DNA of 46,961 nt. It comes from Chiloscyllium plagiosum (lineage: Eukaryota). Both the position numbers and the translations under genes were made by a program. The DNA is taken from the NCBI RefSeq assembly GCF_004010195.1, contig NC_057752.1, forward strand, positions 2,313,750 through 2,360,710. The letters are read 5' to 3'. Each line of letters opens with the position of its first letter. The stretch's first letter is position 1. Shown here piece after piece: positions 3,028 to 46,470 of the stretch. The notes under the pieces are model-generated. The model saw nothing but the letters and a program-made list of their open reading frames with translations, made no database searches and was not told the DNA's origin.

Positions 3028-4345
3028 TAAGACTACAAAAGAATTAGGAGCAGGAGGGTATCATTCAGCCCCTCAAGCTTGCCCTGTCATTCAATAAGGC
3101 CATGGCCAATCCAGCCCAGGCCTCATATGCTCTATTTGACCAGCTGCCCACAGCCATCAACTCTTCAATATTTCAAAAATTTATCTATCTCCTTTAAATA
3201 CTTTGTGGTCAAGCCTCTACGACTGCCTGTATTCCAGACATTCACACCCTTCAGAAGAAATTCCTTTGCATCTCAGTTCTAAATAGTGCCCCCTTATTCT
3301 ATCACTATGTCTTTTAGTTCATGGTTCCCTAACATCATCTCAACATTTTCCCCTGTAAAGCCCTCTCAGACTCTTGTTGGTTTCAATAAAATCATCCTCA
3401 TTCTTCTAAACTCTAAGAAATACAGCCCTCACCTGTTTAGCTGGTCTTGACAAGTCAACCCCTCCATCCCAGGAATCAGCCAAGTGAATCTCTGTTGAAC
3501 TGCCTTCAATGCTGATAGATCCTTTCTTAAATATGAGGGCCACAACTGTGCCCACTACTCCAGGTGCAACTACACAGTTGGAACAAAACTTGCCTATTTT
3601 TAAATTCCAGCTCTCAAGCAATGATAGCTAAAATTCCATGTGCCTTCTTAATTACTTGCTGCACCTACATGCTAATGTTTTGTGTTTTATGCACAAGAAC
3701 ACCCACATCCCTCTGCATTGCATTCCTTCAGAGCTTCTCTCAGCTTAAAGAATAGTCTGAAAATGTGTTGCTGGAGAAGCGCAGCAGGTCAGGCAGCATC
3801 CAGGGAACAGGAGAATCGACGTTTCGGTCATAAGCCCTTCTTCAGGAGGGCATAAGCCATTCCTGAAGAAGGGCTTATGCCCGAAAAGTCGATTCTCCTG
3901 TTCCTTGGATGCTGCCTGACCTGCTGCACTTCTCCAGCAACACATTTTCAGCTCTGATCTCCAGCATCTGCAGTCCTCACTTTCTCCTTAAAGAATAGTC
4001 TGTCTTTTGATTCTTCCTAACAAAGTGTATGACCTCACACACTTCCCAACATTAAGCTCTGTCTGCCAAGTTTATCCCCCCTCACTCAACCTATGTATAC
4101 CCCCTTGCAGATTCCATATGTCCTCATCACAACATTTCCTCCCACCTATTTTTGTACAATAAACAAATGCATTACACTGTGCACCTTCCTCCAGGTCACT
4201 AATGTAGATAGTAAATAAATTGAGGCTCAAGGACTGATCCTTATGGCACTCCACTAGTTACTTATTTCCTGACTGAAAAAGACCCATTAATGCCGACTCT
4301 CTGTCTCCTGTGTGTGAACCAATCCTCAATCCGTGTTAACAGTAC
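3028..4345 (-). mobile_element. Old CR1 LINE fragment interrupted by a palindromic PLE-derived insertion
   Basis: 3' UTR at the left end; ORF 4072-4254 contains LFTIYISDLEEG; sequence continues across the 3760-3986 insertion. Confidence 0.85.
3760..3986. mobile_element. Palindromic Penelope-derived short element (family A) with two opposed hammerhead motifs
   Basis: ~90-bp inverted arms; flanked by exact direct repeat cttaaagaatagtctg (3744-3759 and 3987-4002); CTGAAGA-A-GGGC-TTAT-GCCC-GAAA at 3863-3886 and an antisense copy at ~3818-3845. Confidence 0.85.
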
Positions 4346-4364
4346 TATGGGCTCCTACCTTTCT

Positions 4365-5480
4365 TTTTATTAATTTGTCGGACCTGAGTGTCACTGGCTG
4401 GACTCAGCCTTTATTGCTCGTCCCTAGTTGCCCCTTGAGAAGATGGGGTTGAGCTACCTTCTTGAACCGCTGCAGTCCATGTGCTGTAGGTTGACCCACA
4501 ATGACCTTAGGGATGGAATTCCAGGATTTTGACCCAACGACACTGAGGGAATGGCGATATATTTCCAAGTCAGGGTGGTGAGTGGCTTGGAGGGGAACTT
4601 GCAAGAGGTAGTGTTCCCTTGTATCTGCTGCTCTTATCCTTTTAGATGGAAGTGGTTGTGGGTTTGGAAGGTGCTGTCTGAGGACTTTTGGTGAATTTCT
4701 GCAGTGCGTCTTGTAGATAGTACACACTCTTGCTACTGAGCGTCGGTGGGGGAAGGAGTGGATGTTTGTGGATGTGGTGTAACTCAAGTGTGTTGCTTTG
4801 TCTGAGATGGGATCAAGCTTCTTGAGTGTTATTGAAGCGGCACCATTCCAGGCAAGTGGGGAGTATTCCATCATACTCCTAACTTGTGCCTTGTAGGCAG
4901 GCCTTGGGAAGTCAGGAGGTGAGTTACAAACTGCAATATTCCTAGCCTCTGACCTGCTCTTGTAGCCACTGTGTTGTGTGGTGAGTCCAGTTGAGTTTCC
5001 CTACAATATTGATAGTGGAGGATTCACTGATAGTGACACCATTAAATGACATGGGGCGGTAGTTAAATTGTCTCTTATTGGAGATTGCCTGGCATCTGTG
5101 TGGCACAAATGTTACTTGCCACTTATCAGCCCAAGTCTGGATATTGTCCAGGTCTTGTTGCATTTGAACATGGACTGCTTCAGTATCTGAGGAATCGCGA
5201 ATGGTGCTGAACATTGTATAATCATCAGTGAACATCCCGAATTCTGACCTTATGATGGAGGTAGGGTCATTGATGAAGCAGCTGAAGATGGTTGGGCCTA
5301 GGTCATACCCTGAGGAACTCCTGCAGAGATGTCCTGGAGTTGAGATGACTGACCTCCAACAACCACAACATCTTCCTATGTGCCAGGTATGGCTCCAGCC
5401 AGCGGAGAGTTTGCTCCCTGATACCCATTGATTCCAGTTTTGTTGGGGGCTCACCCTCGATCAAATGTGGCCTTGATGGC
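4365..5480 (-). mobile_element. CR1-group LINE fragment (second family; RT C-terminus and 3' tail)
   Basis: LGPTIFSCFIND..MFTDD..MQQDLDNIQTWADKWQVTF and MEYSPLAW...SKSWNS; tail aaggggcaactaggg...aataaa. Confidence 0.9.
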
Positions 5481-5860
5481 AAGACTTATCTTGTGCAATA
5501 ACCTTTTATAAGACATCTTACAGAATGCCTTCTGGAAATCCAAATACAATACATCTACCAGTTCCCCTTTGTCAACTCTGCTCATTCCATCCTCAAACAA
5601 ACTCACAAAATTGTCAAACATGATTCCTCTTTCACAAAACCGTGTTGACTGATTGTGTGAAACCTTTCTAAATGTACTGCTTTTCTTCATTGATAATAGA
5701 CTCTAACATTTTCCCAATGACATATGTTAAGCTAACTAGCCTATAGTTTCCTACGTTCTATCTGCCTCTCTTCTTGAAGAGACAGATCACATTAGCAGGT
5801 TTTCAACCTCAGAATCCAGTGTCTTCTGCACTATTCCGATCAATGCCTCCACTATCTCTT
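5480..5860 (-). mobile_element. CR1 LINE RT N-terminal fragment
   Basis: ORF 5451-5690 contains VDKGELVDVLYLDFQKAF. Confidence 0.85.
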
Positions 5861-6164
5861 CAAAATGGAATCTATAGGTACAGGTGTGTGTAGGTACTGG
5901 CAGGAGGGCATAGAGCATCTTTTGGGTGACCTGACTAGCCTGGCATCCCTCTTCCATTCTCCACTTCTTTGGATGAGGCAAATAGAGGCATTTCCATTGG
6001 GGAAAATCTGATGGTGCTGGGGGCAGGAGAATTGCAAGTCCCAGGAAGGGATACAAAGAAAGGCTAACAAATAGTTTAAGTACACTCACCTTTTGTACCT
6101 CTGTATTCTTTCCAAGCTTCTAGGATACCTACTGCTGCTCTTGATGCCCATTTCAAATGGGTGG

Positions 6165-6989: not shown

Positions 6990-7908
6990 TCATCCTGCCA
7001 CATGCCCAATTTTCAAATTGAATGGCTGTAGCAACAAGTTCCACCTAACCAGTCTGGCATTTTTGTCCTTAAATTTCTCCACAAGCTTCAGTGGGTTATG
7101 TTCAGTGTATATGATTGTCTCAAATACATTACTGGTAACATAAACATCAAAATGTTGTAACACCAATACCAAGCTCAAAGTCTCCTTTTCAATTGTCGAA
7201 TATTTCTGCTGATGAATGTTCAATTTCCTGGAGAAATATTGGATTGGTCTTTCTATCTTCTCATCATCTTGCTGTAAGAGCTCAGCACCAACACCCACAT
7301 CACTCACATTGATAGCCACCTTGAATGGCTTTGTGTAATTAGGTGTGGCTAATACTAGGGCAATGGTTAACACAGCTCTCAGGCTGTCAAATACCTTCTG
7401 ACAGTCCGCTGTCCACTGAAACCTTTTTTTAGCAATGCAGTGAGTGGAGCAGCCACATTGCTAAAAGTTGGTACAAATGTTCGATAAAATCCATTCAATC
7501 TCAGGAACTGTAGTACTGCTCTTTTTATTAATGGTATGCAAAACTCCCCAATTAACTTTGTTTTTGCATCCCGTGGGGCCATTTGTCCATGTCCAATAGC
7601 ATGGCCCAGGAAAGTGACTTGGGCTTTGGTAAATGCACTTTTAGCCAGGTTTGCCACCAAGCCTGCCTTCCAAAGTCAATCAAACAAGTCCAACAAATGT
7701 TGGAAATGTTCCTTCCATGAGTGACTAAAAATCACCAGGTTGTCAATATAGACAACACAGTTGGGTAACCGGCAATGACCTCATTGGTTAGTCTCTCAAA
7801 TGTGGCTGGCACATTTTTCATACCAAATGGCATGACTTTGAACTGACATAGTCCATTCGGCATTAGGAAAGCCAAAATTGTCTTTGCTCTTTTTGACGAA
7901 GCTACTTG
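6990..7908 (-). pseudogene. Gypsy RT C-terminal part and RNase H (frameshifted)
   Basis: FKVMPFGMKNVPATFERL; VTFLGH; SDVGVGAELLQ..YFSRKLNIHQQKYSTIEKE..IIYTEHNPL..ARLVRWNLLLQPF. Confidence 0.92.
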
Positions 7909-8782
7909 GTCATAGTCATAGAGATGTACAACACAGAAACAGACCCTTGGGTTCATCTTGTCCATGCCAACCAGATGTCCCAACACAATCTAGTCCCGCC
8001 TGCCAGCACTTGGCCCATATCCCTCCAAACCCTTCCTATTTATATTCCCATCCAGATGCCTTTTAAATGTTGCAATTGTACCAGTCTCCACCACTTCTTC
8101 TGGCAGCTCTGCATGAAAAAGGTGCCCCTGAGGTCTCTTTTATATCTTTCCCCTCTCACCCTAAACCTATGCCCTCTAGTTCTGGACTCCCCGACCCCAG
8201 GGAAAAGACTTTGTCTATTTATCCTATCCATGCCCCGCATGATTTTATAAACCTCAGTAAGGTCACCCCTCAGCCTCCGACGCTCCAGGGAAAACAGCCC
8301 CAGCCTGTTCAGTCTCTCCCTGTAGCTCAAATCCTCCAACCCTGGCATCATCCTTGTGAATCTTTTCTGAGCCCTTTGAAGTTTCACAACATCTTACCGA
8401 TAGGAAGGAGACCAGAATTGCATTCAATATTCCAAAAGTTTCCTAACCAATGTCCTGTACAGCTGCAACATGACCTCCCTACTCAATACTCTGACCAATA
8501 AAGGAAAGCAAACCAAATGCCTTCTTCACTATCCTATCTATTTGCGACTCTACTTTCAAGGAGCTATGAACCTGCTCTTCAAGGTCTCTTTGTTCAGCAA
8601 CACTCCCTTGGACCTTACCATTAAGTGTGTAAGTCCTGCTAAGATTTGCTTTCCCAAAATGCCGCACCTCACATTTATCTAAATTAAACTCCATCTGCCA
8701 TTCCTCAGCCCACTGGCCCATCTGATCAAGATCCCATTGTACTCAGAGGTAACCTTCTTCACTGCCCATTACACCTCCAATT
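7909..8782 (-). mobile_element. CR1 LINE 3' fragment nested inside the Gmr1 RT
   Basis: WQMEFNLDKCEV, RRRLRGDLTEVYKI; splits the host RT between ..LRGYWQ and VASSKRAKT.. Confidence 0.93.
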
Positions 8783-9376
8783 TTGCCAGTAGCCTCTGAG
8801 CAAATCCAACTTAGAAATATAAGTTGCTTGTCCTACTTTCTCAACACAGTCTTCTAAACATGGAATCAGATATGCACCAGTCTTTGTAACTGCATTGACT
8901 TTGCGATAGTCCACACATAACCATTGGGTACCATCTGGCTTTGGCACCATTACTATGGATGTGCTCCAGTCTCTGTAACTCACTTCGATTATGTTGTCTT
9001 GGAGCATGTGCTCTATCTCCTTCTGAACCTGTGCTAACTTTAGACGGTTATACCTATAAGGATATTGCTTAATTGGAACAGCATCTCCCATATCTGCCTC
9101 ATGTATAATTAGGTTAGCACTTCCCAGCTTATTTCCACTTATCTCCCCTTGTGATAGTAATAACTCTTTCAGGTCATTTCGGTTTTCCTGTGGAAGGTAA
9201 CTCAATAATTTATTCCAATTTTTAACAATTTCCTCATTGTCCAATTTGATTTGAGGAATGTCCAATTCAGAATCCTCTGAGCTCAGTCCTTCCTTCTGTG
9301 CTGTAATCATGAACACCTTCTCCTCTTGCTTTCCTTCCCTATCAGAATACCTTTTGAGCATATTCACATGACACAC
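8783..9376 (-). pseudogene. Gypsy RT N-terminal part
   Basis: IKQYPYR..VQKEIEHML..IVMVPKPDGTQWLCVDYRKVNAVTK..KLDLLRGYWQ. Confidence 0.93.
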
Positions 9377-10650
9377 TCTGTGAGATTTCTTTGTCTGGAA
9401 ACCTTATTAAATAGTTCACATTACTCAATTTCCTTTCGACTTGATAAGGTCCACTAAACCTTGCTTTTAAAGGCTCACCTGTTACTGGAAGTAACACCAA
9501 TACCTTATCCCCGATAGCAAAGTTGCAAGTTTTTGATTTTTTTGTCTGCTTCCTGTTTCATGGTATGCTGTTATACTTTTAAATGCTGTCCAGCCAACTC
9601 CCCCACTCTATTTAATCGTTCCCAAAAATTTGGCACAGTCCAAATATGTGGATTCTGAATTCTGACTGACCAATTTCTCCTTAATCAACTTTAGTGGTTC
9701 TCTCACTTCATGCCCAAAGACTAATTCAAATGGATTAAATTTGGTCGATTCATTTGGTGCATCTCTGATCGCTAAAAAGTACAAACGGAATTTCCTTATT
9801 CCAATGATTTGGACAGTTTTGACTATAAGCCCTCAACATGGTCTTTAATATCTGATGCCACCTTTCTTGCGCTCCCTGCGACTAGATGATATATGGTAGA
9901 TTTTAATTGTTTTATTGTCAAGCTGGGAATCGGTTTAGCTCAGTTGGCTGTATTGTTGGTGTACAGAGCAGTGTGGGTTCAATTCCCATCACTGGTTTGA
10001 GGTTACCATAAAGGACTCTCCTTCTCAACGTCTTCCCTCACCTGAGGTCTGGTGGCCCTTAGGTTAAATCACAACCAATCGCTTCTCTCTAATGAGAGAG
10101 CAGCCCCTATGGTCTGGTAGGGCTGTAGTGATGCAGCAATTGTGAGGCTATCCATAATTTCCTTGAATAATTTTGATATAAAGTTTGACCCTTGATCTGA
10201 TTATATCTCTGTGGATAGTTATTATCTACTGAAAAATTTGAGTAATTTTGCTACAATTCTTTTAGCTGTGACATTGCATGATGGAACGACCTCTGGAAAT
10301 CTAGTGGACACATCCTGATTCCCACTTGTTGTTTTAGGTCGGTGTCCTATGCAATCAATTAAGATTCTTCCACAAGGTTCCTCAAATGCAGGAATAGTTA
10401 TTAAAGAAATGGGTTCTTTTCATGCTTATGGTTTTCCAATTACCTGATGCGGCTGGCAAAATCCAACTCCATCCTTGTGCAGTCCAGGCCAGTAAAAATG
10501 TTTTGTATTTTAGCTTGGGGTTTTCTCACTGCTAAATGCCCCCTAGTGGTAGCTCGTGTGCTACCCGCAACACCTCCTTTCTATACCCCACTGGCAATAC
10601 GACTTGATAAACTTCTGCTCATTTCTCATCTGCCTGGATATGTGATGGTC
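9377..10650 (-). pseudogene. Gypsy integrase (disrupted), upstream of RT
   Basis: Manual translation gives KIQKHFYWPGL, DVSTRFPE, SDQGSNF, ERWHQILKTML, PFELVFGHEVREP, and the GPY/F module LKARFSGPYQV. Confidence 0.88.
9925..10138 (+). mobile_element. tRNA-derived SINE nested in the Gmr1 integrase
   Basis: A-box tagctcagttgg, B-box gggttcaattccc; imperfect TSD attgtcaagct (9914-9924) / attgtgaggct (10139-10149). Confidence 0.8.
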
Positions 10651-10867: not shown

Positions 10868-11434
10868 CTAAACTTTCTTATCTGTGCTCTTTGATCTCGC
10901 TTGTTTGAACTGGTGGCTTTGTAACCTCACTACCACACAGTCAGGAAAAATCCCAGGATGTGTGTCCTGCAATAGTTCAGTTGCCAGAGTTTGCACTGGC
11001 TTTTCAACCACAGTTGGCAGCACTCCTACCAGTGAATCAGCTGTATCAATATCAAGGACAAATTGTATTCCTGGAGCTGAGTGTTTGTCCAGTACTCCTA
11101 CCATGACTTTCTCACTCTTCACTGGACACTCTAACCTCACTCTACATAGCTGAGCACTTCTTTTCTCACCGTGAATTCCAGTTACTGGCACCTTTTCTGG
11201 CAATAGTCCTTCAGAGGTACATATCTCCTCATCTTTCAGTGTCACAGACTGAGAGGATCCTGTGTCTCTTAATATTGTAACCTCTTTACCAGCTGCTCCT
11301 GGCCTATGCGAGTAAACTTTACCTTCACAGGTATTTGGTTTAAGAAGATCTGGCTCTTCCTCCTCAACCAGCCTCCGACCAGCTTGTACATTTTGGTGCA
11401 GCTTTCTCGCCTCCACTGTGCTTTCTGTTACCAC
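10868..11434 (-). pseudogene. Gypsy aspartic protease region
   Basis: KEVTILRDTGSSQSV (DTG active-site motif). Confidence 0.9.
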
Positions 11435-11489
11435 TCCGACAACGTTACTGGCTTATCCTGTTTCCCTACATCTGGCTTCCCAGTGTTTT

Positions 11490-12368: not shown

Positions 12369-12370
12369 TC

Positions 12371-12992: not shown

Positions 12993-13579
12993 GTGGGCTC
13001 TCTTATATGTGATGCCTCGATCACATTTCAGAAGTGCAGGAAATGGCAGTAGGGCCTGGCACTATTAAGGTGAAGCAGCCACTTGTGTGAGGTGGGCACT
13101 TTATCTGCTGCTGGTCCTGCCCACTGGTGAATATGTCAGGGCACAAACCAGTAGGATCTGAATCCATATCTTTAAAGTGTAAATGGTGTTTCCATTCATT
13201 TGTGTACATCCCAAGTTGCTGGTATGAACAAATCCACATTTTAAATTTAAAAATGCAGTTTTGCTGAAAAAGACTCAAAGCTTTCAACTTGCACTGATCC
13301 AGGACACTTGCTGGAATACAGGACTTTGACATTATGTCACTCATTTCTTAGCAATACTGAAGAACTGTACTTTTTTAGTGACTATAAACAAGATGAGGAA
13401 GATTCTGGAATAAAATGAAGATGCTGCCAGACCTGCTAAGTTTCTCCAGCAGTTTCTGTTTTTGTTTGTTTGAGGAAGAATCTAACATCTCCAAACTGAC
13501 TGTGACTCTGCACATTTCCCTCAAATGTGATCAAACAGCATTGAAGGCATTTGATAATCAACATCATAGACTACTAAAG

Positions 13580-15400
13580 GTGTGGTCCTCAAAGTAGCAG
13601 ATGCACTAGTGGTCATCTGTCAAGATTCTACAGACTCTGGAACAGTTTCTGTGGATTGCAGAGTAGTTAATGTAACCCCACTGTTTAAAAAAAGGTCAAG
13701 AGAAAACCAGGAATTATAGACCAGTTAGCTTGACATTGTTAGTGGGAATACTGCTGGAACCATTATAATAACCAATCACTTGGAAGATGGTGAGAGGATT
13801 GGACTGAATCAGCAAGGATTTACAAAGGGGAAGTTGTGCTTGACAGATTGACTGGAATTCTTTGAGGATGTAACTAGTAGAGTTGATAAGGGCAAGCAAG
13901 TGGATGTGGTTTACTTGGATTTTCAGAAGGCTTTCGATAAGGTTCCACTTAAGCGATTAGTGCGTAAAACTAGAGTGCATGAGACTGGGGGAAGTGTGCT
14001 GATATGAATAGAGAACTGGTTGGCAGTCAGGAATAACCACAACAGGAATGTCAGACAATGACTAATGGGCTACTGCAGGAATCAATGCTTGGTCCCCAGC
14101 TCTTCACAATGTATATTAGTGATTTAGATGAGGAAAGCAAATGTAATTTCTTCAAGTTTGCAGGCAACAAAAAGCTAGATGGGAGGGTGACCTGTGCGGA
14201 GGATGCAGAGATGCTTCAGTGTGACTTGGACAGGTCGAGTGAGTGGGCACCTGCATGGCGGATGCAATATAATGTGGATAAATGTGAAGATACCCACTTT
14301 GGGAGCAAAAAACAGGAAGGCTGCTTATTCTCTGAATGGGAAAGGGGAGGTGCAATAAGACCTGGGTGTCCTTGAACACCAAATGCAGAAAGGAGGCATT
14401 GCAGATACGGCAGGCAGTGAAGAAGGTAAATGGTGCAATGGCCTTCATAGTGAGAGGATTTGAGTACAGGAGCAGGGGTGTCTTGCTGCTATTGGACAGA
14501 GTGAGACCATACCCTGGGGTACTGTGTGCAGTTTTCATTCCTTACCTGAGGAATGATGTTCTGGCATGGGAGGGCAGCGAAGGGTTTACCAGACTGATTC
14601 CTGGGATGGCAGGACTGATGTCTGAAGAGAGACGGGATCGGTTAGGACAAGATTCACTGGAGTTTGGAAAAATGATGGGGGTGTGGAATCTCATAGAAAC
14701 CTGTACAATTCGAACAGGACGAGACAGGGTAAACACAGGAAGGATGTCCCTGATAACTGGGGAATTGAGAACCAGGGGGTGGGTCACAGTCTGAGGATAT
14801 CGGGTAGGCCATTTAGGACTGAGATGGGGAGAAATGTCTTCACCCAGAGAGTGGAATTCTCTGTCATGGAAAGCAGTTCAGGCCAACACATTATGGGTGG
14901 CACTGTGGTTCAGTGGTTGGCACTGTGGTTCAGTGGTTAGCACTGCTGCCTCACAGCACCAGGGACCCAGATTCAATTCCAGCCTCAGGCAACTGTCTGT
15001 GTGGAGATTGTACATTCTCCCCGTGTCTGCGTGGGTTTCCTCTGGGTGCTCCGGTTTCCTCCCACACTCCAAAGTTGTGCAGGTTAGGGTGAATTGGCCA
15101 CGCTAAATTGCCCCATTGTGTCTTGGATGTGTAGGTTAGGTGCATTAGTCAGAGGGTAGGGGAATAGGTCTGGGTGGGTTACTCTTCAGAGGGTCGGTGT
15201 GGACTGGTTGGGCCAAATGGCCTGTTGCCACACTGTAGGGATTCTATGATTGAAGACTCTCAAGAGAGATGGCAATACAATACTTGGGGCTGAAAGGATC
15301 TGCGATGGAAGTGGGAACAGGAGACGGGTTGGATGATCAGCCAGGATCATATTGAATAACAGAGCAGACTCGAAAGGCCTACACCTGCTTCCATGTTTCC
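13580..15400 (+). mobile_element. CR1 LINE ORF2 fragment interrupted near its 3' end by an HE1 SINE
   Basis: NVTPLFKK..NYRPVSLT, DVVYLDFQKAFDKVP, LGPQLFTMYISDLD; 3' UTR resumes at ~15252. Confidence 0.9.
14895..15251 (+). mobile_element. HE1-type V-SINE
   Basis: tRNA head, V-domain (cattctccccgtgtctgcgtgggtttcc...ccggtttcctcccac), CR1-like tail. Confidence 0.92.
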
Positions 15401-16870: not shown

Positions 16871-16999
16871 GTGGTGGGGACTGCAAATGCTGGAGATTAG
16901 AGTCAAGATTAGAGTGGTGCTGGAAAAGCACAGCAGGTCACGCAGCATCCGAGGAGCAGGAGAATCGACGTTTTGGGCCTAAGCCCTTCATCAGGAATG
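16871..16999 (-). mobile_element. Single-arm PLE family A element with a mutated hammerhead
   Basis: CTGATGAAGGGCTTAGGCCCAAAACGTC (G12 changed to A); TSD tagcagtag at 16862-16870 and 17000-17008. Confidence 0.8.
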
Positions 17000-17462
17000 T
17001 AGCAGTAGTCAGCACATTTCAAAAATAAACTTCTGTACAAAGGATATTGAGACATTTCATCTCGTAATCCTAAATGTGAAGGGTTGGTGGGAGCAGATTC
17101 GATGGGAACTTTGATAAGCGAATTCAATAAATACTGAAAGGGCAAACTCATACAGAATCTGGAGGGGGAAGAACAAACTGGATCACTCTTTCAAAGCCTT
17201 AACGTGAGCATAATTGGTCAAGTAGCCTCCTGAAAGTCATGCTGCGATACACTTCTGAAGGGGGTGGGTCTTAAACCCAGGATTCCTGGCCCAGAGGTAC
17301 CACTGTGCCACAACCACCCTCATGCATGCTGTCAGTTTCTGAGAAAAGAATCATCCCCCCAAAAAACGGCAAATGTTTCTAAATCTGCGGTGACAGTGTT
17401 TGTAATAGAAGCAAAATCTAGCTCATCAGGATCTGTAACCCCAACAAATATTTGTTAGCAGC

Positions 17463-21532: not shown

Positions 21533-22750
21533 AATAGAACATAGAACATTCTAAGCAGTACAGGCCCTTTGGCCCTCGATGTTGTGCTGACCTGTGGAAC
21601 CAATCTGAAGCCTATCTAACCGACACTATTCTATTCTCATCCTTATGCCTATCCAATGACCATTTAAATGCCCGTAAAGTTGGCGAGTCTACTACTGTTG
21701 CAGGCAGTGCATTCCATGCCCATTCCATTCCTCTGAGTGAGGAAACTACCTCTGACATCTGTCCCATATCTGTCACCTCTCAATTTAAAGCTACGTCCCC
21801 TCGTGCTAGCTATCACCATCCGAGGAAAAAGGCTCTCCCTGTCCACCCTATCTAATCCTCTGATTATCTTATATGTCTCTATTAAGTCACCTCTCAACCT
21901 TCTTCTCTCTAACGAAAACAGCCACAAGTCCTTCAACCTTTCCTCATAAGACCTTCCCTCCATACCAGGCAACATCTTAGTAAATCTCCTCTGCACCCTT
22001 TCAAAAGCTTCCACATCCTTCCTATAATGCGGAGACCAGAACTGTACACAATACTCCAAGTGTGGCCGTACCAGAGTTTTGTACAGCTGCAGCATAACCT
22101 TGTGGCTCCAAAACTCAATCCCTCTACCAATAAAAGCTAACACACTGTATGCCTTCTTAACAACCCTATCAACCTGGGCGGCAACTTTCAGGGATCTATG
22201 TACCTGGACACCGAGATCTCTCTGTTCATCTACACTACCAAGAATCTTACCATTAGCCCAGTACTCTGCATTCTTGTTACTCCTTCCAAAGTGAATCACC
22301 TCACACTTTTCCACATTAAACACCAGTTGCCACCTCTCAGCCCAGCTGTGTAGCTTATTTATGTCCCTCTGTAACCAGCAACATTCTTCAGCACTATCCA
22401 CAACTCCACCAACCTTAGTGTCATCCGCAAATTTACTAACCCATCCTTCTACACTCTCATCTAGGTCATTTATAAAAATGACAAACAGCAGTGGCCCCAA
22501 AACACATCCTTGAGGTACACCACTAGTAACTGAACTCCCGGATGAACATTTCCCATCAATCACCACCCTCTGTCTTCTTTCAGCTCATCAATTTCTGATC
22601 CAAACCACTAAATCACCCTCAATCCCATGCCTCCATATTCTGTGCAATAGCCTACCATAGGGAACCTTATCAAACACCTTACTGAAATCCATATACATCA
22701 CATCAACCGCTTTACCCTCATCCACCTGGTTGTTCACCATCTCAAAGAAA
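21533..22750 (-). mobile_element. Young 5'-truncated CR1 LINE with a 300-aa uninterrupted RT segment (21664-22566)
   Basis: SGVPQGCVLGPLLFVIFINDLD..SKFADDTK..; (atagaac) repeat tail. Confidence 0.96.
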
Positions 22751-25074: not shown

Positions 25075-25102
25075 GACGTTTCGGGCAAAAGCCCTTCATC
25101 AG
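25075..25102 (-). ncRNA. Minimal type I hammerhead ribozyme motif (intact core)
   Basis: CUGAUGA-A-GGGC-UUUU-GCCC-GAAA-CG-UC. Confidence 0.75.
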
Positions 25103-25865
25103 GAATAAAGGCAGAGAGCCTGAAGCATGGAGAGATAAGCTACCCTCTCAGGCAACATGTTCCATATTTGACCCATCCCCTGGGTAATTTGCTTTTCCAT
25201 CAGATCCTCGCGAAATGCTTCATTTTTCACTTTAACCTTAATTCAATTGGTCTAAGACATGCCTACATCGCGGAAGTATTTATCACAATCGGCCCAGTCT
25301 ATATCACTCACCATTATGTCTGCATCAATTGCCCCCTTAGCCTCTTCTGCTCCACAGACCCCAAACAAAAGTTAACTTTTTGCTGAGACCTCTCACTTCA
25401 GGGAACATCCCGTGAAACCTCTCTGCAATCTCTGCAGTGCAATTGTTCCCTGCCGATTTTGTAGCGATTGGACCCGCGCAGACTGTGGACTAACCATATC
25501 TTTCTTTAGAGTCTGCAACAATACTTCCTTCCTCCTATATTCCACCCTGTGGCTGATGATTATGCTTCCTTACGAACTTGCAGATGCAAGGACTACTGGG
25601 TTTTCAGTTCAGTACAACAGTGAACCTTTCATCGTTTTAAGTAAAGGTCCTGCTGAGAGCCCTGTCATTGACGGTGCCAGGAATCTTCACTGCCAAAACA
25701 AAACTTTCCTGAGCATAACGCACCGCCTTTCCCCCGGTACCTCCCGCTATATGCCTCATCATTAGAGCAGATGCGATCGGGAGGTAAGCTAAGAGAATGG
25801 AAGAGAGTCCATTCAGGTAGGATACTGTGACGATGCATAATAAATGTAACAGTGGAAATTGAAAG

Positions 25866-26227
25866 NNNNNNNNNNNNNNNNNNNNNNNNNNNNNNNNNNN
25901 NNNNNNNNNNNNNNNNNNNNNNNNNNNNNNNNNNNNNNNNNNNNNNNNNNNNNNNNNNNNNNNNNNNNNNNNNNNNNNNNNNNNNNNNNNNNNNNNNNNN
26001 NNNNNNNNNNNNNNNNNNNNNNNNNNNNNNNNNNNNNNNNNNNNNNNNNNNNNNNNNNNNNNNNNNNNNNNNNNNNNNNNNNNNNNNNNNNNNNNNNNNN
26101 NNNNNNNNNNNNNNNNNNNNNNNNNNNNNNNNNNNNNNNNNNNNNNNNNNNNNNNNNNNNNNNNNNNNNNNNNNNNNNNNNNNNNNNNNNNNNNNNNNNN
26201 NNNNNNNNNNNNNNNNNNNNNNNNNNN
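25866..26227. other. Assembly gap (362 N)
   Basis: Run of N. Confidence 1.
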
Positions 26228-26397
26228 CTTGTCGGACCTGCCCAGCTCCTTTTCCACCTATCCACTCCCCCCTCTCCTCCCTGACCTATCACCTTCATCT
26301 CCTTCCCCCCTGACCTATTGTACTCTATGCCACTCTCTCCCCACCCCCACCCTCCTCTAGCTTATCTCTCCACGCTTCAGGCTCTCTGCCTTTATTC

Positions 26398-26425
26398 CTG
26401 ATGAAGGGCTTTTGCCCGAAACGTC
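26398..26425 (+). ncRNA. Minimal type I hammerhead ribozyme motif (intact core)
   Basis: CUGAUGA-A-GGGC-UUUU-GCCC-GAAA-CG-UC. Confidence 0.75.
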
Positions 26426-27054
26426 GATTTTGCCTGTCCTCGGATGCTGCCTGAATTGCTGTGCTCTTCCAGCACCACTGATCCAGAACATCATTAACAA
26501 GACACAAGTCAGGAGTGTGATGGAATGCTCCCCACTTGCCTGGATGGGGTCAGCTCCAACAACACTCAAGAAGCTCAACACCATCCAGGACAAGGCAGCC
26601 TGCTTGATTGGCACCACCTTCAACAAATATCCACTCCCTCTACCACCGACACTCAGTAGCAGTAGTGTGTGCTATCTACAAGATGCCCTGCAGAAACTCA
26701 CCAAAGATCCTCAGACAGCACCTTCCAAACCCACAATCACTTCCATCTAGAAGGACAAGGGCAGCAGATACATGGGAACACCAGCCCCCTGCAAGTTCCC
26801 CTCCAAGCCATTCAACATCCTGGAAATATATCGCTGTTCCTTCACTGTCTCTGGGTCAAAATCCTGGAATGCCCTCCCTGATGGTATTGTGGGCCTACCT
26901 ACAGCACATGGACTGCAGCAGCTCAAGAAGGCAGTTCACTACCACCTCGTCCAGGGGCAACTAGAGACAGGCAATAAATCCTGGGCCCAGTCAGAGATGC
27001 CCATGCCCCTGATTGAATTTTAAAACCTTCTGATACAATTCAGTTCTATCTTGT

Positions 27055-27582
27055 TATAGAGTAATACAGCATGGAAACAGACCCTTCGGTCCAACTCGCC
27101 CATGCCAACCAGATATCCTAAATTAATTAGATTAGATTAGATTACTTACAGTGTGGAAACAGGCCCTTCGGCCCAACAAGTCCACACCGCCCCGCCGAGC
27201 GCAACCCACCCATACCCCTACATGTACCCCTTACCTAACACTATGGGCAATTTAGCATGGCCAATTCACCTGACCTGCACATCTTTAGACTGTGGGAGGA
27301 AACCGGAGCACCCAGAGGAAACCCACGCAGACACGGGGATAACGTGCAAACTCCACACAGTCAGTCGCCTGAGGCGGGAATTGAACCCGTGTCTATGGCA
27401 CTGTGAGGCAGCAGTGCTAACCACTGTGCCACCGTGCCGCCCACCATCTAGTCCCACTTTCCAGCATTTGGCACAAATCCCTCCAAACTCCTCCTATTCG
27501 TATACCCACTGAAATATCTTTTAAATGTTGTAACTGTACCAGCTTCCACCATTTCCTCTGGCAGTTCATTCCATACATGCAT
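27055..27582 (-). mobile_element. CR1 3' end with a nested HE1 V-SINE (~27127-27445)
   Basis: CR1 UTR ccagatatcctaaattaa|tctagtcccac is split by the SINE, which has a (ttaga)n tail and the V-domain. Confidence 0.9.
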
Positions 27583-29028: not shown

Positions 29029-29202
29029 CTCCTCCCCTCTCTTCACACTGGCTGGTCAAAGAGCAGGAACCTATCTACACAGATCATTGCCAGTGGCAGG
29101 GCAGGTTGAGAAAGGGACTTAAAAAAGACATATGGGATCCTAAGCTTCTGGTACAAAAACAGTGAAGTTACAATGACCCCCTGTATAAAATATTGCTCCA
29201 GT

Positions 29203-29312
29203 TGAGTTCTGAAGAAGGGTCACTGGATGCGAAAATTTAACTGTTTTTTTCTCTCTCTCCGCAGATGCTGCCCAACCAGCTGAGTTTCTCCAGCAGTTTC
29301 TGTGTTTGTTCC
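29203..29312 (+). mobile_element. PLE family B terminal fragment with a degenerate hammerhead
   Basis: gagttCTGAAGAAGGGTCACTGGATGCGAAAATTTAACT followed by cagatgctgcc..tttctccagca. Confidence 0.75.
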
Positions 29313-29555
29313 TCTTTTCTTCCTCTGGTTCTGGGCACAGATGCCAGCTGCTACTTGCCCAGATGATATTGAAAGGTCCAGCTTAGACGTACAAAACAGG
29401 TTTGTGTACAGACAGGGGAATATCAATGTCTCTTTGTCTAAAAGCATGATTCTTTTTTCCCCCTTTAGCTGAGAGGCGCAACCTGCTTGAGAATTGTCAA
29501 AGGGACAATGGTAGAAAAGGGGAAAGAAACTTTAGTGGCACAACTCTGACTCAAT

Positions 29556-31590: not shown

Positions 31591-33404
31591 TGATATGAAT
31601 AGACTCAAAACATTCACTCTGTTTTTCTCTCCACAGAAACTGCCAGACCTATTGAGTTTCTCCATCTTCTGGTTTTCAATTCAGATCTCTAGCATCCACA
31701 GCATTTTGTTTTCATTTAATGTCCCTGTACTGACTAAGCCTAATTTCGAGGTTATTATTACACCCCTGTATATTTGGCAGTAAACTGAATTCAGCACTAA
31801 TACATTATCTTTCATTGTTAAAAAAAGTTGTCCACATTTATTAACTGTTCCTAGTTACTCTGACAACCACAAGCTTCCAAGCAAAGGGCACTGGGGGAAG
31901 GTCTAATGGCCGTGTGACAGGTTTAGATAGGACAGATAAAGAAAAGCTGTTCCCAGTGGCTGATCTCTGGTCTTTAAAAATATAAACTTCCTCTAATGAT
32001 GAACTCAACACCGCAAGGAACTGGAAGAACCATGAAGTTGATAAAAGCCATAAACAAATGACTTGTTATAAGACGAGGCATATTCTATGCAAAATCATGA
32101 GGGTGGTTCTTGATTGGTCAGGGGATCAATGGTTGCAGGGAGAAGGTGGGAGAAAGGGCCTGAGAAACATCAACCATGATTGAATGGCAGAGCAGAATCG
32201 ATGGGCTGAATGGCCTAATACTATTCCTATACCTTATGGTCTTATGGTCTAAATATACGAACCTAGAGGCACAACATATGTTATGTGCTACAGAAGGCTA
32301 TTTATTCAAGAAAATATATATTTTCAAATTTTTGGCCAGTGCTGTGGTATTGGAGACATTTGAGATGTATGCAGAATTGATTAAAAATGGCATTCACAGT
32401 CTCCAAGACAGAACTAGTGCAACACTGGGAGAATGGATCGATACCAGACTCTTGCAAGAAGGCAGCTTGTTTGGGGACTAGCAGCATAGAGACACGTGAG
32501 ATTTCTCCAAAAGTTGGATCAGACAGAGAAGGTCAGCTGAACAATGCCTTGAAGCGCAGAAAGCAAGATGGCTGATTGTGGCTCAGTTTGACAACTGAAG
32601 ACCCACCTGCTCAGCTAATTGGCACCCTGTGCTATCCGTGCACAGGGATACTGGGTGAAATGGCCACCTCTTGTGCTGTGTCATTCTACAACCATGCAAC
32701 TTCTCACAGCAAACCTGGTATTTGTTTGTTCCTGAGGGTGGAGTCTGGAAATGGGCTCTTCATTGAGCAACATGGGTAAGGAACCAAGACCCTCAGTACC
32801 GGATCCCGATGAGGCTGAGAGGAGCCAATCAAAAGGTGGGGTCCTCCAAGAAGCCATTTGCTGGGCTTGACAAGTCTGGGAGTTGCATAAGGGAAGGAAG
32901 AGTGAGAAAATGAAAGGGATCCATGGCTTTGAGGTCCAGAGAGAGAGAGAGATTAGAAGCTACACGTGAAAGGTGGGGGATCTAGTAGATGAGAAAGTGT
33001 ATCTAGGAACACAAATGAAATGTCCGAAGAAGCTTTTCCTTTCATCATAGAACAAAACCATAGACATTGACAGTCTAAAAGGCGGTGTACATCAGACCAG
33101 TTAGCACATAGACAGGTCAGTTTGAACTGTTCCCATTCCATTTTGCATTGTGTGTCTAACTCCTGTGTTATACATGTATGATTTTAAAAAATGCTTCATC
33201 CACATAGCAGCATATCAGCGAATCCTCTAGAAACTAAAGCATTGGAACTGGGTTGCGGTGAGATCCTCAGCTTGACCAATCCCGAATCTTTGATATCTGA
33301 AATAAAGCAACGATGACACTCCAAATCTCTGCCTAAAATCCTTCTGTTGATCAATTCTGTGCTTCATCATCAACAAATTGTGAATTATTTAAACATTCAC
33401 AGAA

Positions 33405-36661: not shown

Positions 36662-36797
36662 CAAGCAAAAGGAAATACTGTGGGTGCTGGAGATCTGAAA
36701 TGACAAAAAAGTGCTGGAGAAACTCAGCAGGGCTGGCAGCATCTGTTGGAAGGGAAACACAGTTCACAGTTTGATTCTAACATGACTTCTTCAGAAC
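36662..36797 (-). mobile_element. PLE family B terminal fragment
   Basis: gctggagaaactcagcag..ggcagcatctgt..acttcttcagaac. Confidence 0.7.
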
Positions 36798-36965
36798 GTC
36801 AGTTTCTGCAGCTTTGGAACACTTAAGCCAGTTGAACAAGTCTTTTCTTAAATATGTTCAGTCACGCCAATCTCTTATTTTTGTAGTTCCAAACACCACC
36901 TGTTTAAGATCAGCGACTTTGTTTATCTGTAATGAAAACAGCTGATAGTTATTAGTAGGTTTTTT

Positions 36966-37255
36966 TTAGATTAGATTCCCTACAGCGTGGAAACAGTCCA
37001 CACCGACCCTCCGCAAAGTAACCCACCCAGACCCAATTCCCTCTAACTAATACCCCTAACACTATGGGCAATTTAGCATAGCCAATTCACCTGATCTGCA
37101 CATCTTTGGACTGTGGGAGGAAACCGGAGCACCCGGAGGGAACCCACACAGACACGGGGAGAACGTGCAAACTCCACACAGGCAATCTCCCGAGGCTGGA
37201 ATCGAACCTGAGACCCTGGTGCTGTGAGGCAGCGGTGCTAGCCACTGTGCCACCC
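36966..37255 (-). mobile_element. HE1-type V-SINE
   Basis: V-domain, tRNA head and (ttaga) tail. Confidence 0.92.
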
Positions 37256-37765: not shown

Positions 37766-37834
37766 ATGTTCATTATTATTCCTTTAAAGGTGTCCCCATT
37801 GTCTTCTATTGACAAACCGCCTTCTTTAATTCAA

Positions 37835-38355
37835 CCAAAACATAAATTGCTGGAGAAACTCAGCAGGTCTGGCAGCATCTGTGGAGAGAACACAGAGTTA
37901 ATGTTTCAGGTCCAGTGACCCTTCTTCAGAATTGGTAGTAGCTAGGGAAAAGGTGGCAGATATGCTGAAGACAGGGGCTGGGGGTATAGGAGTGAGTGGA
38001 GAGGTGGAGATGTAGTGCAGACAGAGAGAGAATGGCAGTTCAGCAGGCAATGGGATGGATAATGATAAGCTGGGGAGAAAGAAAAGCTGCTAATGGGGAC
38101 CATGAGCGGGTGAGAATGGGCTGGTCGGGCTGAGAGCAGCCCATGTGATGACAGGACCTGGGGTGTGAGGATGAGTAAAGCACATGGATGGAGATGTTAC
38201 GGCCCGAAAACTATTGATCCTGATGTTGAGTCCACAAGGCTGCAGGGTCCCCGAGTGGAAAATGAGGTGCTGATCTTCACCGGAGCGGTGCAGCAATCCC
38301 AATACGGAGATGTTGGCGGTGTGTTAAAGTGTTGGGCAGCCAGAGGCTCAGGGTG
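37835..38355 (-). mobile_element. Penelope-like element 3' part: GIY-YIG C-terminus plus hammerhead-bearing terminus
   Basis: EDQHLIFHSGTLQPCGLNI (PLE endonuclease C-terminal motif); CTGAAGAAGGGTCACTGGACCTGAAACATTAACT at ~37896-37929. Confidence 0.85.
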
Positions 38356-39014: not shown

Positions 39015-39257
39015 CCCCTGAGAAAAGGAACCGGAAGTGACCTCACCACAGGAAATTACATCACCAACCAAAAGAAATGCAAAGTGACCTCACCACAGGA
39101 AATGACATCACCAACCCAAAGAAATGCAAACATATACATGGAAAGCAGGAATTTTTAGCATTGATTCGCCTGAGGCACACTGAAGATATTATCTAGTAGG
39201 GTAACGAAACGTCTGGAAATGAACCTTTCAGCTCAACGAGCAAACCTGCATCCAAAA
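39015..39257 (+). mobile_element. PLE family D terminus with a 47-bp tandem duplication and a hammerhead motif
   Basis: Duplicated unit starts at 39035 and 39082; CTGAAGA-T-ATTATCTAGTAGGGTAAC-GAAACGTC at 39180-39213. Confidence 0.7.
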
Positions 39258-39524
39258 GAAGTCCTATTTTGAGGTCCTTGAAGGAAAGACCTGGTTACAG
39301 GAACTGCTGGGCATTTATTAGAAAAAGTGTTTTCTGCAGGCAGGACATAATTCCAAAAGGCAGAATCCAGAACACTGGACACATTGAAGAAACAGAGTTG
39401 CTGCAGAGGGGAGCTGATGGCTTCAGTTAGTGGGATGGGTGCAAGTAAATGGGACAAAAATTCTTCTTCACCCGAAACCATCTCATGAGTGAACACCTAA
39501 AATTGGTTCAGTAAGTTTTATAAC

Positions 39525-39975
39525 AAAACAAAGAAAGACTGTGGATACTGGAGATCTGAAAGAAATCCAGAGAACGCTGGAGAAACTCAGCATAGCTGGC
39601 AGCATCTGTGGAGAGAGAAACAGTGTTAACGTTTCGAGTCCAATGACTCTCTGTCAGAACTAAAAGCAGCTGAGAAATGGTGGTATTTACACTGCTGGCA
39701 GGGAGCGGGGGAGGAAGGAGTGAGCCAAATAGTGCCCAAAGAGAGGGGGAGCAACTGGAGAAGCAGACAAAAGGATTGCTGATGATAAGCTAGGTGAGAG
39801 GTAAATGCTGATAGGAAGTGTGAATAGTGGAAAATGGGTTGGCTATACTGGAAACAGGATGGAGGTGTGTGGATGGATGATCAACATGGAGGGAGGTCTT
39901 TGCACTCTGAAATTGTTAAACTCAATGTTAAGTCCTGAGGACTGTAAGGTACCTGGGCAGGAAGTGAGGTGTTGT
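39525..39975 (-). mobile_element. Penelope-like element 3' part (family B)
   Basis: QHLTSCPGTLQSSGLNIEFNNFR; hammerhead-like CTGACAGA-GAGTC-ATTG-GACTC-GAAACGTT at 39628-39657. Confidence 0.82.
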
Positions 39976-41067: not shown

Positions 41068-41245
41068 AAAACAAAAAGCAAAAGAACGGCGGATGCTGTA
41101 AATCAGAAGCAAAGACAGAAATTGCTGGAGAAGCTCAGCAGGTCTGGCAGCATCTGTGGAGAGAAATCAGAGTTAACATTTCACCGCACCCGAAACATTA
41201 ACTCTGATTTCTCTCCAGAGATGCTGCCAGACCTGCTCTTTCAGC
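41068..41245. mobile_element. Palindromic PLE family B short element
   Basis: gcaggtctggcagcatctgtggagagaaatcagagttaacatttc / gaaacattaactctgatttctctccagagatgctgccagacctgc inverted pair; ribozyme cores deleted at the centre. Confidence 0.8.
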
Positions 41246-44149: not shown

Positions 44150-44420
44150 CTTTCTAATTGCAGCTTGCCCGGTGAGCCCCCTGCGAAAGGCCGGGCAATG
44201 GGAGGCTGCAGCGCTGAGGTATCAGAGGGACTGTGAGAGAGGGGATGACATCAGGAAGGAAGTGAGGCATCTGCAGTGCCCACGTGCTGGAGCCTTGGCG
44301 CTGACGCAGCACTTTGGCCAAGCTGCCTGCGAGGGGGTAACCACGGCACCACCTGCTGGAGAGACTGGCATTCGCCACCTCTTAAAGGGACACCCCGCAC
44401 AGAATCGTTGCGGGCATGAC
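44150..44420. promoter_or_regulatory. GC/CpG-enriched candidate enhancer or insulator
   Basis: TGACATCA next to GGAAGGAAGT, CACGTG, TGACGCA, and CTCF-like CCAGCAGGTGGTGC on the minus strand (44346-44359). Confidence 0.5.
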
Positions 44421-44427
44421 TTTCTGA

Positions 44428-44530
44428 TTCTGAGCAAGGGGTGGCCGCACCTGAAACGTTAACTCTGCTTTCTCTCCACAGATGCTGCCAGACCTGCTGA
44501 GCTTTTCCAGCGACTTTTGTTTTGGTTTTG
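44428..44530 (+). mobile_element. PLE family B terminal fragment
   Basis: ttctgagcaaggggtggccgcacctGAAACGTTAACTCT followed by cagatgctgccagacctgctg. Confidence 0.75.
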
Positions 44531-44566
44531 GGTATCTTTCTCTAATCTGCCGATGTTCGGATTTAC

Positions 44567-44712
44567 AAAGTTAAAAATCACACGACACCAGGCTATAGTC
44601 CAACAGGTTTATTTGGAAGCACTAGCTTTTGGACCACCTCTCCTTCATCAGGTGGCTGTGGAGAATAAGATTGTAAGACACAATTTATAGCAAATGTTTA
44701 CAGTGTGATGTT
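44567..44712 (-). mobile_element. PLE family C terminus with a degenerate hammerhead (AGCU palindrome)
   Basis: cacCTGATGAAGGAGAGGTGGTCCAAAAGCTAgtg at 44620-44654. Confidence 0.65.
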
Positions 44713-44885
44713 CAGATTGAGAGTGAGGCTTACTCTAGTGGTTTCAAAGCTCACTGGACATTGTTATTCGATTTGAACTGGGTTAACAGCTTTCTTGAAA
44801 GATGTATGTTAGAAATTGGAGCAGGATTAGACCATTCGGCCCCTCAAGCCTACTCCACCATTCAATGTGAACTTATTAATCAGGG

Positions 44886-45072
44886 TTGAGAGTGTGGTTG
44901 GGAAAAGCACAACAGGTCAGGCAGCATCCAAGGAGCAGGAGAGTTGATGTTTCGGGCATAAGCCCTTCATCAGGAATGCCTGAAATGTCGATTCTCCTGC
45001 TCCTCGGATGCTGCCTAACCAGCACTACACTCTCCACTCTGAGCTCCAGCATCTGCAGTCCTCACTTTCTCC
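44886..45072. mobile_element. Palindromic PLE family A element
   Basis: Inverted arms; minus-strand CTGATGAAGGGCTTATGCCCGAAACATC at 44946-44973. Confidence 0.8.
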
Positions 45073-45074
45073 AT

Positions 45075-46470
45075 ATTGTTCAGGGGTCTTTTCCATCTGC
45101 TCCCTACACCCCTCGATTCTGTGATATCAAAAATCTGTCTCTTTCAGTCTTAAATGTATTCATGAGGGATCATCCACAACCCTCAGGGGTACAGGATCCC
45201 AGATATTCACCACCCTTTACCCAAAGAAATGTCTTGTCATCACAGTCCCAAACAATCAGCCCCTTCCCCTCAGACTGTGCTACACCTCTGGCAGTCAGGG
45301 GGAAACAATCTTTGGGTATCTATTCTGTCAGGATCCTTCAGAATCATGCCTGTTTTAGTGAGATTCCCTGTCATTCTTCCTAACTCCAGAGAATCCCCCC
45401 CCCCCCCCCCCCAGTTTACTCAGCCTCCTATTGTAGACCTCATCCCAGGGACTTTTGGACTGTGTCCAATGTAAATATATCTTTCCTTAAATCCAGCCCA
45501 AAATTGCACCCAGTATTCCAGGTGTGGTCTCACCAAAGCCTTTCCATTGTAACCAGACTCCATTATTCCTGTATTCTAATTCCCTGCAATAAAGGCCAAT
45601 GTGTCACGTGCCTTCCTAATTACTCACGGTACCTGCTTACTAACTTTCTGTGTAGCTTCTGTGAGTTACACCCAAGTCTCAACATGTTGAACATCAACAT
45701 TTACAACAAGAAACTGCCGTTTGCATCAAGTGTCTCTTTGCCGGTACTGTCTGGGGCTCAGCAAGCACAGTGAGGTCATGTGAAAAGAGCCCCTGTTTCT
45801 GCTTTTGTTTCAAACCTCCAGCATCCACCGTTCTTTGTTCTATCAACATTTACAACGTTCATCCCTTCGAAAAAAAACTCTTCTTTTCTAATCTTACAGC
45901 AAACTGAATAACCTCACATTTCACTAAATTATACTCCAGCTGCTGTTTTGTTGTCTACTCACTTAACCTCGAGAATATGTAGCTGAAAAAGCACAGTAGG
46001 GTTGGGAAGCATCCGAGGAGCAGGAGAATCAATGTTTCGGGCAAAAGTCCTTCATCAGGAAAGGCTTATGCCCGAAATGTCGATTCTCCTGCTCCTCGGA
46101 TGCTGCCTAACCTGCTGTGCCTTTCCAGCATCACACTCTCGATTCTGATCTTCAGCATCTGCGGGTCCTCACTTTCTCCATTCATTTAACCTGTCAGTAC
46201 TCCTTTGTAGCACTTCTGTATCTCCCTCACAGCTTACATTCCCAACTAACTTCCTCTGGGCAGCAAACTCACTGTCCTTTTATCAAAGTCATTAATGTAG
46301 ATTGTAAATAGTTGTGGTCCCAGAATGTTAATATATTCAGGAGCCCTCAGCCTGTCTATTAATCTTATTGAATGGTGTTTGGAAATCCAAGTACACCACA
46401 TCTACACATCCCCCTTTATCTACCTTACTAATTACATCCTTAGAAAAACAGACACATTTGGCAAACACAA
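45075..46470 (-). mobile_element. Old fragmented CR1 (starts ~44810) with later insertions
   Basis: cagtattccaggtgtggtctcacc; ttggaaatccaagtacaccacatctac (antisense of VDVVYLDFQ). Confidence 0.7.
45970..46179. mobile_element. Palindromic PLE family A element
   Basis: Inverted arms; imperfect TSD actcacttaacct / attcatttaacct; hammerhead-like motif at 46031-46058 on the minus strand. Confidence 0.8.

Follow-up and report, generated by a model that had tools for sequence, protein, structure and literature searches.

Hammerhead-bearing ends of four Penelope-like element families in Chiloscyllium plagiosum and the footprints of their insertion

A stretch of 46,961 nucleotides of the Chiloscyllium plagiosum genome (contig NC_057752.1, positions 2,313,750 to 2,360,710; "the window" is this whole stretch) carries many copies of a small ribozyme motif. 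These motifs are minimal type I hammerheads located at the ends, or pseudo-long terminal repeats (pLTRs), of Penelope-like elements (PLEs), and they belong to four families, A to D. The motif is real, abundant and of a known kind, and motif and layout have already been published for PLEs; what this analysis adds is the scale and a count of the footprints. Most copies are probably dead-on-arrival products of PLE insertion on uncut RNA, not ribozymes acting on host transcripts. The evidence that carries this reading is the parentage of the copies, their target-site duplications, two fixed 3' ends per family, inverted pairs with a single tail, the crowding of 5' ends just before the ribozyme and the decay of its core.

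We scanned the window with family profiles, each built from 24-60 genome copies, and found 20 arms in 15 insertions. Fifteen arms cover the core; 9 of these keep both boxes, and 2 are intact by a full descriptor requiring the boxes, a stem II of at least 3 bp opening with G-C, the palindrome and a stem I of at least 2 bp. A strict scan for CUGANGA..GAAA gave 15 matches. The original prediction, in which minus-strand positions approximate the predicted cut site and plus-strand positions are those of C3, had listed 12 motifs, and each of these places is a hammerhead-like repeat end by window scan and family comparison. Nine of the strict matches fall at these 12 places, which there have an unbroken CUGANGA...GAAA (C3 at 3845-, 3863+, 25102-, 26398+, 29209+, 37929-, 39180+, 44973- and 46058-, the sign giving the strand); G12 has become A at 16995- and 44652-, and the first box is broken at 39657-. 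Many copies had been expected to carry core mutations, and indeed stem II, palindrome and a stem I of at least 2 bp are kept in only 2 of the 12 places, 25102- and 26398+, the two arms of a single insertion. The features of the window are as follows.

3760-3986, both strands: family A2 head-to-head insertion, C3 at 3845(-) and 3863(+), neither core fully intact
13419-13468, plus strand: family B fragment without ribozyme core, by profile match
16875-17003, minus strand: tailed solo end of family A2, C3 at 16995, G12 replaced by A
24965-24978, plus strand: 14-bp target-site duplication flanking the 24979-26488 insertion, left copy (the right copy is 26489-26502)
24979-25142, minus strand: family A1 tailed arm, intact minimal hammerhead, C3 at 25102, predicted cut after 25075
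25143-25865, minus strand: non-PLE segment of a young non-autonomous A1 subfamily, by genome matches and tblastx
26228-26488, plus strand: family A1 tail-less arm with autonomous-type 3' untranslated region (UTR), intact hammerhead, C3 at 26398, predicted cut after 26425
29202-29316, plus strand: family B end with damaged stem II, C3 at 29209
31600-31705, plus strand: family B end without the first box, by profile match
36674-36802, minus strand: family B end with decayed core, by profile match
37830-37955, minus strand: family B end with pLTR upstream and two CpG changes, C3 at 37929
39151-39263, plus strand: family C (Poseidon-like) end, C3 at 39180, G10.1 changed to A, pLTR extending upstream
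39537-39685, minus strand: family B end with broken first box, by profile match
41084-41237, both strands: family B inverted pair, each arm truncated within the core
44426-44539, plus strand: family B end with broken first box, C3 at 44430
44549-44681, minus strand: family D end, C3 at 44652, G12 changed to A, TATA-like box upstream
44878-45068, both strands: family A2 inverted pair, C3 at 44973(-), tailed right arm beginning within stem II
45965-46179, both strands: family A2 inverted pair, C3 at 46058(-), tail on the right arm

A family-independent descriptor gave 41 matches in a 1.33-Mb non-N sample and none in each of five Markov-resampled controls, and all 41 fall inside the four families; the profiles had no match on reversed sequence. 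As had been proposed, the copies descend from minimal type I hammerheads: CUGANGA, the extra base, a stem II opening with G-C and GAAA-NN-UH are the majority state of all families. The predicted palindromic helix III is a stub of CG in A, B and C (with CpG decay) and of GC in D. Between families and subfamilies the core is constant and the stems change in pairs. The I.1 pair is C-G in A and D, U-A in B and A-U in C, and I.1 and I.2 are paired in 76-100% of copies per family with differing pair types, counts that are not independent among related copies. At I.3, family A has U-U and family C has G-C in 15, U-A in 4 and C-G in 2 of 22 copies. Stem II pairing in family C gave a permutation p of 0.009, a weak value given related sequences, and in the largest C subfamily II.4 is mismatched, as A-G or G-G (7 of 22 paired). 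That the matches are due to chance, or to repeats that have nothing to do with ribozymes, could draw on Rfam (no hammerhead among 15 matches at E<=10, only hairpin-driven microRNA matches below cut-off) and on the many unrelated matches that loose patterns yield, yet this extremely improbable explanation is already refuted by the descriptor controls and the compensatory stems, and the pLTR position matches the published layout.

Two further arrangements turned up among the genome loci, which we cite by L numbers. L020:1-1230 (C28:11850654 onward) is an array in which at least 32 identical 36-nt units of an A-type hammerhead core follow one another head to tail; the array runs beyond the start of the locus, and its last unit passes into a normal element end. 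Because the inner units carry G at position 17 and lack stem I, they are likely inactive. L027:166-315 is an inverted pair from another subfamily with hammerheads, one that differs in stem II and in the 3' flank, and the genome therefore holds more variants than the window.

The proposed PLE origin is borne out by a GIY-YIG endonuclease (EN) frame upstream of the end in some genome copies of all four families, and the division into four families is upheld by family comparison and profiles, A and B being related downstream of the core. We fetched 30 loci per family; those without an EN frame are too short to show one. Near-identical copies of the A1 type (26398 in the window) are numerous in the genome; of 719 candidates, 40 were scored. 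At L007 the GIY-YIG frame lies upstream of an A1 end on the same strand (PF01541, E 1.7e-5, above cut-off), has 150 scored genome matches at 93-100% and is followed by the same UTR as in the window arm 26228-26488. Because the frame of L042 joins reverse transcriptase (RT) motifs, thumb, CX4CXXC linker and GIY-YIG, A1 is, by its coding sequence, a Neptune-type PLE. EN frames also stand upstream on the ribozyme strand in family B (L078, L083, L096, L098, L099, L100), family C (L108, L114, L120) and family D (L140, L148, L149). These are EN frames only, some of them broken, and that of family C scores 19.3, below the Pfam cut-off of 22.6. The CX4CXXC linker of A1 recurs in decayed forms in neighbours of B and D; family C has no linker and carries an ATG at the start of stem II. 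We take A, B and D to be likely Neptune-like and C likely Poseidon-like, names that rest on whether the linker is present or absent and on EN motifs. Five candidates for full-length autonomous copies with long open frames proved to be mostly N gaps, and none was recovered at full length. Each family has two 3' ends, about 30-35 nt apart, the difference being the published tail.

We estimated the density of the motif in two samples, one made up of 15 stretches, each 10 kb long and placed at a fixed offset on the 15 largest contigs (142.6 kb non-N) and one of 120 stretches inside 10 gene bodies (1,142 kb non-N); the gene bodies were defined by runs of same-strand laminin-G or spectrin exons, and this sample is not random. 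The samples hold 55 and 465 profile matches, 42 and 300 core-covering copies (one per 3.4-3.8 kb) and 11 and 41 intact copies (one per 25 kb over 1.28 Mb), respectively. Genome-wide abundance at about one motif per 4 kb had been anticipated from the window and is thus found in 1.28 Mb sampled elsewhere; the motif density of the window is ordinary for this genome. The window is part of a gapped 3.56-Gb genome, and extrapolation with 5% N assumed gives 9.0e5 core-covering copies (8.1e5-1.0e6) and 1.4e5 intact copies (1.0e5-1.8e5), the ranges being Poisson limits only.

After insertion the ribozyme decays. G12 and both palindrome bases of A, B and C lie in CpGs, and G12 is changed in 28% of copies (92/329), other CpGs in 32-36%; G12 decays like an ordinary CpG. 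None of the 83 core-covering family B copies is intact. Non-CpG mismatch is 5.8% in the core (194/3367) versus 11.5% in the 3' flank, and 8.1% versus 7.3% in family D. We rejected selection on dispersed copies as the reason for the lower divergence of the core, which reflects subfamily differences and vanishes in D. Since the core is constant across families and decays after insertion, the ribozyme would have mattered in the master elements, with no visible role in the scattered copies.

The insertions themselves carry regular footprints. Among 113 inverted pairs, 99 combine a tailed with a tail-less arm, 10 have two tails and 4 have two short arms. Duplications of 8-19 bp, mostly 11-16, flank 78 of the 113 pairs compared with 15 of 339 shifted controls. 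The head-to-head insertion at 3760-3986, with a tail only on its right arm and a 16-bp duplication (3744-3759 and 3987-4002), is an example. At the 5' side, 213 of the 282 copies of A2, B and D that reach C3 stop within 10 nt upstream of it, and another 116 starts are spread over the 60 nt downstream of C3. Starts within 3 nt of the predicted cut site number 14 of 406 in these families; a pile-up at the cut site was considered and discarded, as 18 of 138 downstream starts in all families fall within 3 nt of it and about 16 are expected. The DNA upstream of copies ending just before C3 is host-like (pyrimidine 0.49 vs 0.72). Solo copies with this 5' end have a duplication there in 22 of 45 cases in A2 (control, 8/330) and in 6 of 46 in the older family B; the A2 end at 16875-17003 starts about 8 nt before C3 and has a 9-bp duplication. 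Long copies carry TATA-like boxes 30-40 nt upstream, which are absent from short copies, and an initiator-like YYANWYY has its A at -4 in A and B.

One-tail pairs, duplications and the 5' pile-up before the ribozyme fit two-nick priming on uncut RNA. The PLE protein would nick both target strands 11-16 nt apart, and each nick would prime reverse transcription at one of two internal starts, located some 95 and 125 nt downstream from where the ribozyme begins. Most complementary DNAs would finish by running off at the 5' end of an RNA whose start lies a few nucleotides before the ribozyme, where the TATA- and initiator-like motifs lie, giving solo or head-to-head copies of 100-130 nt without the upstream promoter; long copies would arise only from RNAs with the end at their 3' side. 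At least two RNA molecules could feed one insertion, with template jumps and head-to-head joining. The ribozyme would be selected in the masters and is predicted to need the PLE protein or a partner copy for cleavage. Published work agrees in several respects: in vitro, an anole PLE cuts and extends both strands, two internal RT starts define its tail, its main template is uncut RNA, and its ribozyme is active only with the protein (PMC11167929). Ribozyme dimerisation is not required for the inverted layout, because Naiads form inverted insertions without canonical hammerheads (PMC8557442).

The young insertion at 24979-26488 has a captured segment of 723 nt on one arm and an autonomous 3' UTR on the other. 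The segment (25143-25865) is 100% identical over 458 bp in 40 of 40 scored genome matches, matches LINE-like (long interspersed nuclear element) frames by tblastx (E 9e-6) and resembles a decayed LINE end in its 3' part. Its depth in the DNA run X15 is near single-copy, so its amplification may be lineage-specific. The polyA single-cell run X20 gave no reads on it, with 2% of that run read and the source probably a related species. Ten loci carry this subfamily (L286-L295; L014 carries it as well), the captured arm being tailed in 4 and short in 6, and the opposite arm is of autonomous type in 4 of the 4 loci where it is visible. In the window it is the tailed arm that bears the segment, whereas in L290, L292 and L294 the short arm does. 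In three gap-free loci its same first base is joined to three different sequences, one of them a LINE fragment, and L294, which is free of gaps, joins three sources: one 14-bp duplication encloses a tailed arm of autonomous type, a LINE fragment and a captured-segment arm. Judged by these copies, the captured-segment A1 type is a true non-autonomous subfamily.

Several observations weigh against insertion by two-nick priming on uncut RNA. Family C lacks the 5' pile-up, 15 of its 29 copies extending at least 40 nt; several of its shorter 5' values are subfamily differences. The 5' ends of family D centre at -4/-5, nearer than TATA+30 predicts. TTC or TTCA recurs at inverted junctions, where joining guided by microhomology is possible, and the 5' pile-up itself could reflect RT halting at the ribozyme fold or be a product of such joining. 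The two arms of a pair differ less from each other than family members taken at random (10.0% vs 16.7%), which is compatible with two RNAs and equally with a single RNA copied twice or with later conversion. In some A1 cases both arms could come from a read-through RNA that includes an upstream pLTR, and in this gappy assembly identical young copies and shared gap edges may in part be assembly products. Arkhipova et al. ascribe inverted junctions to self-priming on the antisense template (PMC3846280).

The original prediction further suggested that the copies could cut host pre-mRNAs. Intact copies would then cleave with the aid of the PLE protein, chaperones or a trans copy, and selection would thin the sense strand. 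Host cutting by these copies is not supported, and we consider it improbable. Intact copies in the 120 gene-body stretches number 15 sense and 26 antisense (p=0.12; Fisher vs non-intact p=0.14), a difference that runs in the direction of host cutting, and so against the reading we prefer, without being significant; this test has low power, with 10 genes and 41 intact copies. The 11-nt core is intact in 50 of 143 sense and 69 of 157 antisense copies (p=0.13), and intact density per strand is lower on gene sense strands than in the 15 fixed-offset stretches, with p=0.011 in a post hoc comparison uncontrolled for region. Over all gene-body arms, however, there is no significant strand bias (224 vs 241, p=0.46), and G12-to-A is not commoner in sense (p=1.0). 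The inverted pairs make up 226 of 540 arms (about 42%) and form fold-backs that would bury the ribozyme; the four in the window have predicted folds of -87 to -186 kcal/mol, the last for 3760-3986, which folds to one hairpin. Intact tandems are rare, with both members intact in 2 of 33 same-strand neighbours within 1.5 kb, and the A1 monomer has a predicted minimum free energy of -11.4 in a fold that is not the hammerhead (-5.7). X20 yielded 628 family reads from both strands, as host cutting would have it, and no read-end pile-up, a weak test with fragmented polyA reads. Loose X20 read ends at 26393-26394 were dropped as support for the 5' boundary, since A2 diverges from A1 there anyway. The anole PLE shows protein-assisted cleavage (PMC11167929), whereas published monomers did not cleave in vitro without a partner or the PLE protein (PMC4209133, PMC11167929). 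A broader version, which we hold doubtful, would posit about 100,000 intact protein-gated hammerheads, at least ten times as many as reported for other vertebrates, with the PLE protein, when expressed, licensing trans cutting of pre-mRNAs, selection acting against intact sense-strand copies, and the stub pairing two templates that a dimeric protein copies in each head-to-head insertion.

It is likewise unlikely that the short units propagate themselves in the manner of short interspersed nuclear elements (SINEs) or retrozymes, from short masters with an internal promoter and possibly through circular RNA. Defined 5' ends and target duplications would suit this, as would the existence of one real non-autonomous subfamily, the tandem core units of L020, the internal promoter within the pLTR of Drosophila virilis Penelope (PMC2377424) and the derivation of retrozymes from pLTRs (10.64898/2026.07.22.740005). 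However, inverted junctions vary by locus, so that the pairs did not multiply as units; neighbours within 150 bp are seldom tandem (11) and mostly inverted (128); the ends miss the cut site, unlike those of unit-length retrozymes; and the L020 unit lacks stem I and has the G at position 17. A tRNA-type head was not seen by eye. The earlier description of the copies as SINE-like non-autonomous elements applies to one subfamily, the 24979-25865 type, and probably not to most copies, which look like direct PLE products because they lack the TATA region and have target duplications and tailed or tail-less ends.

Minimal hammerheads in metazoan PLE pLTRs, scattered genome-wide, with opposite-strand pairs and weak, dimer-only cleavage, were described by Cervera and De la Pena in 2014 (PMC4209133; see also the review PMC6155905). 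The shark copies share the type I core, the extra base after A9, G10.1-C11.1 and palindromic 15.2-16.2; in both cases one genome holds several families, the motifs are mostly single and come from truncated PLEs, and there are close opposite-strand pairs. The shark copies differ in a stem II of 4-6 bp and a stem I of 2-4 bp, and the extrapolated 1.4e5 intact and 9e5 total copies compare with about 4,000 in coelacanth and 9,000 in Xenopus, with different descriptors; the searched text and supplement of PMC4209133 name no cartilaginous fish. Inverted pLTRs with one tail, target duplications and host capture are known from PLEs (PMC3846280, PMC8557442). With Neptune-clade endonuclease-positive (EN+) PLEs, families A, B and D share the order RT-thumb-Zn linker-GIY-YIG and strong 5' truncation; inverted copies tailed on one arm, TATA/Inr-like motifs, host DNA captured between pLTRs, and a 30-40 nt tail with target duplication are also common to both (PMC8557442, PMC3846280). 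Unlike in those reports, most insertions here measure only 100-250 nt and have their 5' boundary, a sharp one, just before the ribozyme; a count is given for the one-tail rule (99/113), and duplications are mostly 11-16 bp, not 8-10. The Poseidon element PAc of Anolis carolinensis is closest to family C and in mechanism, with the ATG at the start of stem II common to both; its data are from Poseidon in vitro, whereas ours are genomic footprints from three Neptune-like families, in which an insertion shows signs of several templates (PMC11167929). Non-LTR retrozymes (PMC7229834) are likewise non-coding type I hammerhead repeats derived from pLTRs (10.64898/2026.07.22.740005, a source sampling one chondrichthyan and reporting intergenic enrichment in Xenopus). 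They are tandem with a ribozyme per unit, whereas in the window the copies stand alone or in inverted pairs and begin elsewhere than at the cut site; retrozyme-type tandem units with intact ribozymes are absent from the window, and the sample has the two intact same-strand pairs given above. The open literature that we searched held no shark-specific account, no two-nick priming in PLEs and no count of the one-tail rule.

Other observations concern the families and the rest of the window. At 39035-39130 the upstream region of family C contains a 47-bp tandem duplication, with unit number differing between genome copies. Family B has, about 20 nt past the predicted cut, a pyrimidine tract ending in CAG directly before an ATG (e.g. 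37885-37900(-) and 41155-41170), which resembles a 3' splice site ahead of the start of an open reading frame; such ends, about one copy per 9 kb, could be cryptic splice acceptors. Family B copies in gene bodies number 67 sense and 60 antisense, with no bias. A SINE-like repeat of about 170 nt has three copies in the window (14913-15088, 27269-27444 and 37090-37253) and, in our estimation, resembles V-SINE/HE1. The recognisable window frames of at least 80 amino acids we take to be LINE, Gypsy-type or repeat-derived pieces: broken frames, presumably from the pol region of a Gypsy-type LTR retrotransposon, interspersed with LINE fragments, at 6990-9403 and 10868-11452, and CR1/L2-like reverse transcriptase fragments at 21664-22584 and in many shorter places. 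The 24979-26488 insertion itself presumably lies within a CR1/L2-like LINE remnant.

Should intact copies be capable of activation, which our data do not show, the ribozyme load would be of consequence for the integrity of pre-mRNAs in cartilaginous fishes. How PLEs insert and what part the hammerhead plays are open questions (PMC8557442, PMC11167929), and about a million short PLE ends provide large-sample in vivo footprints of the likely insertion route. The one-tail rule, the nick stagger, the use of uncut RNA and template mixing can all be counted here, which yields sharp predictions for an in vitro PLE assay.

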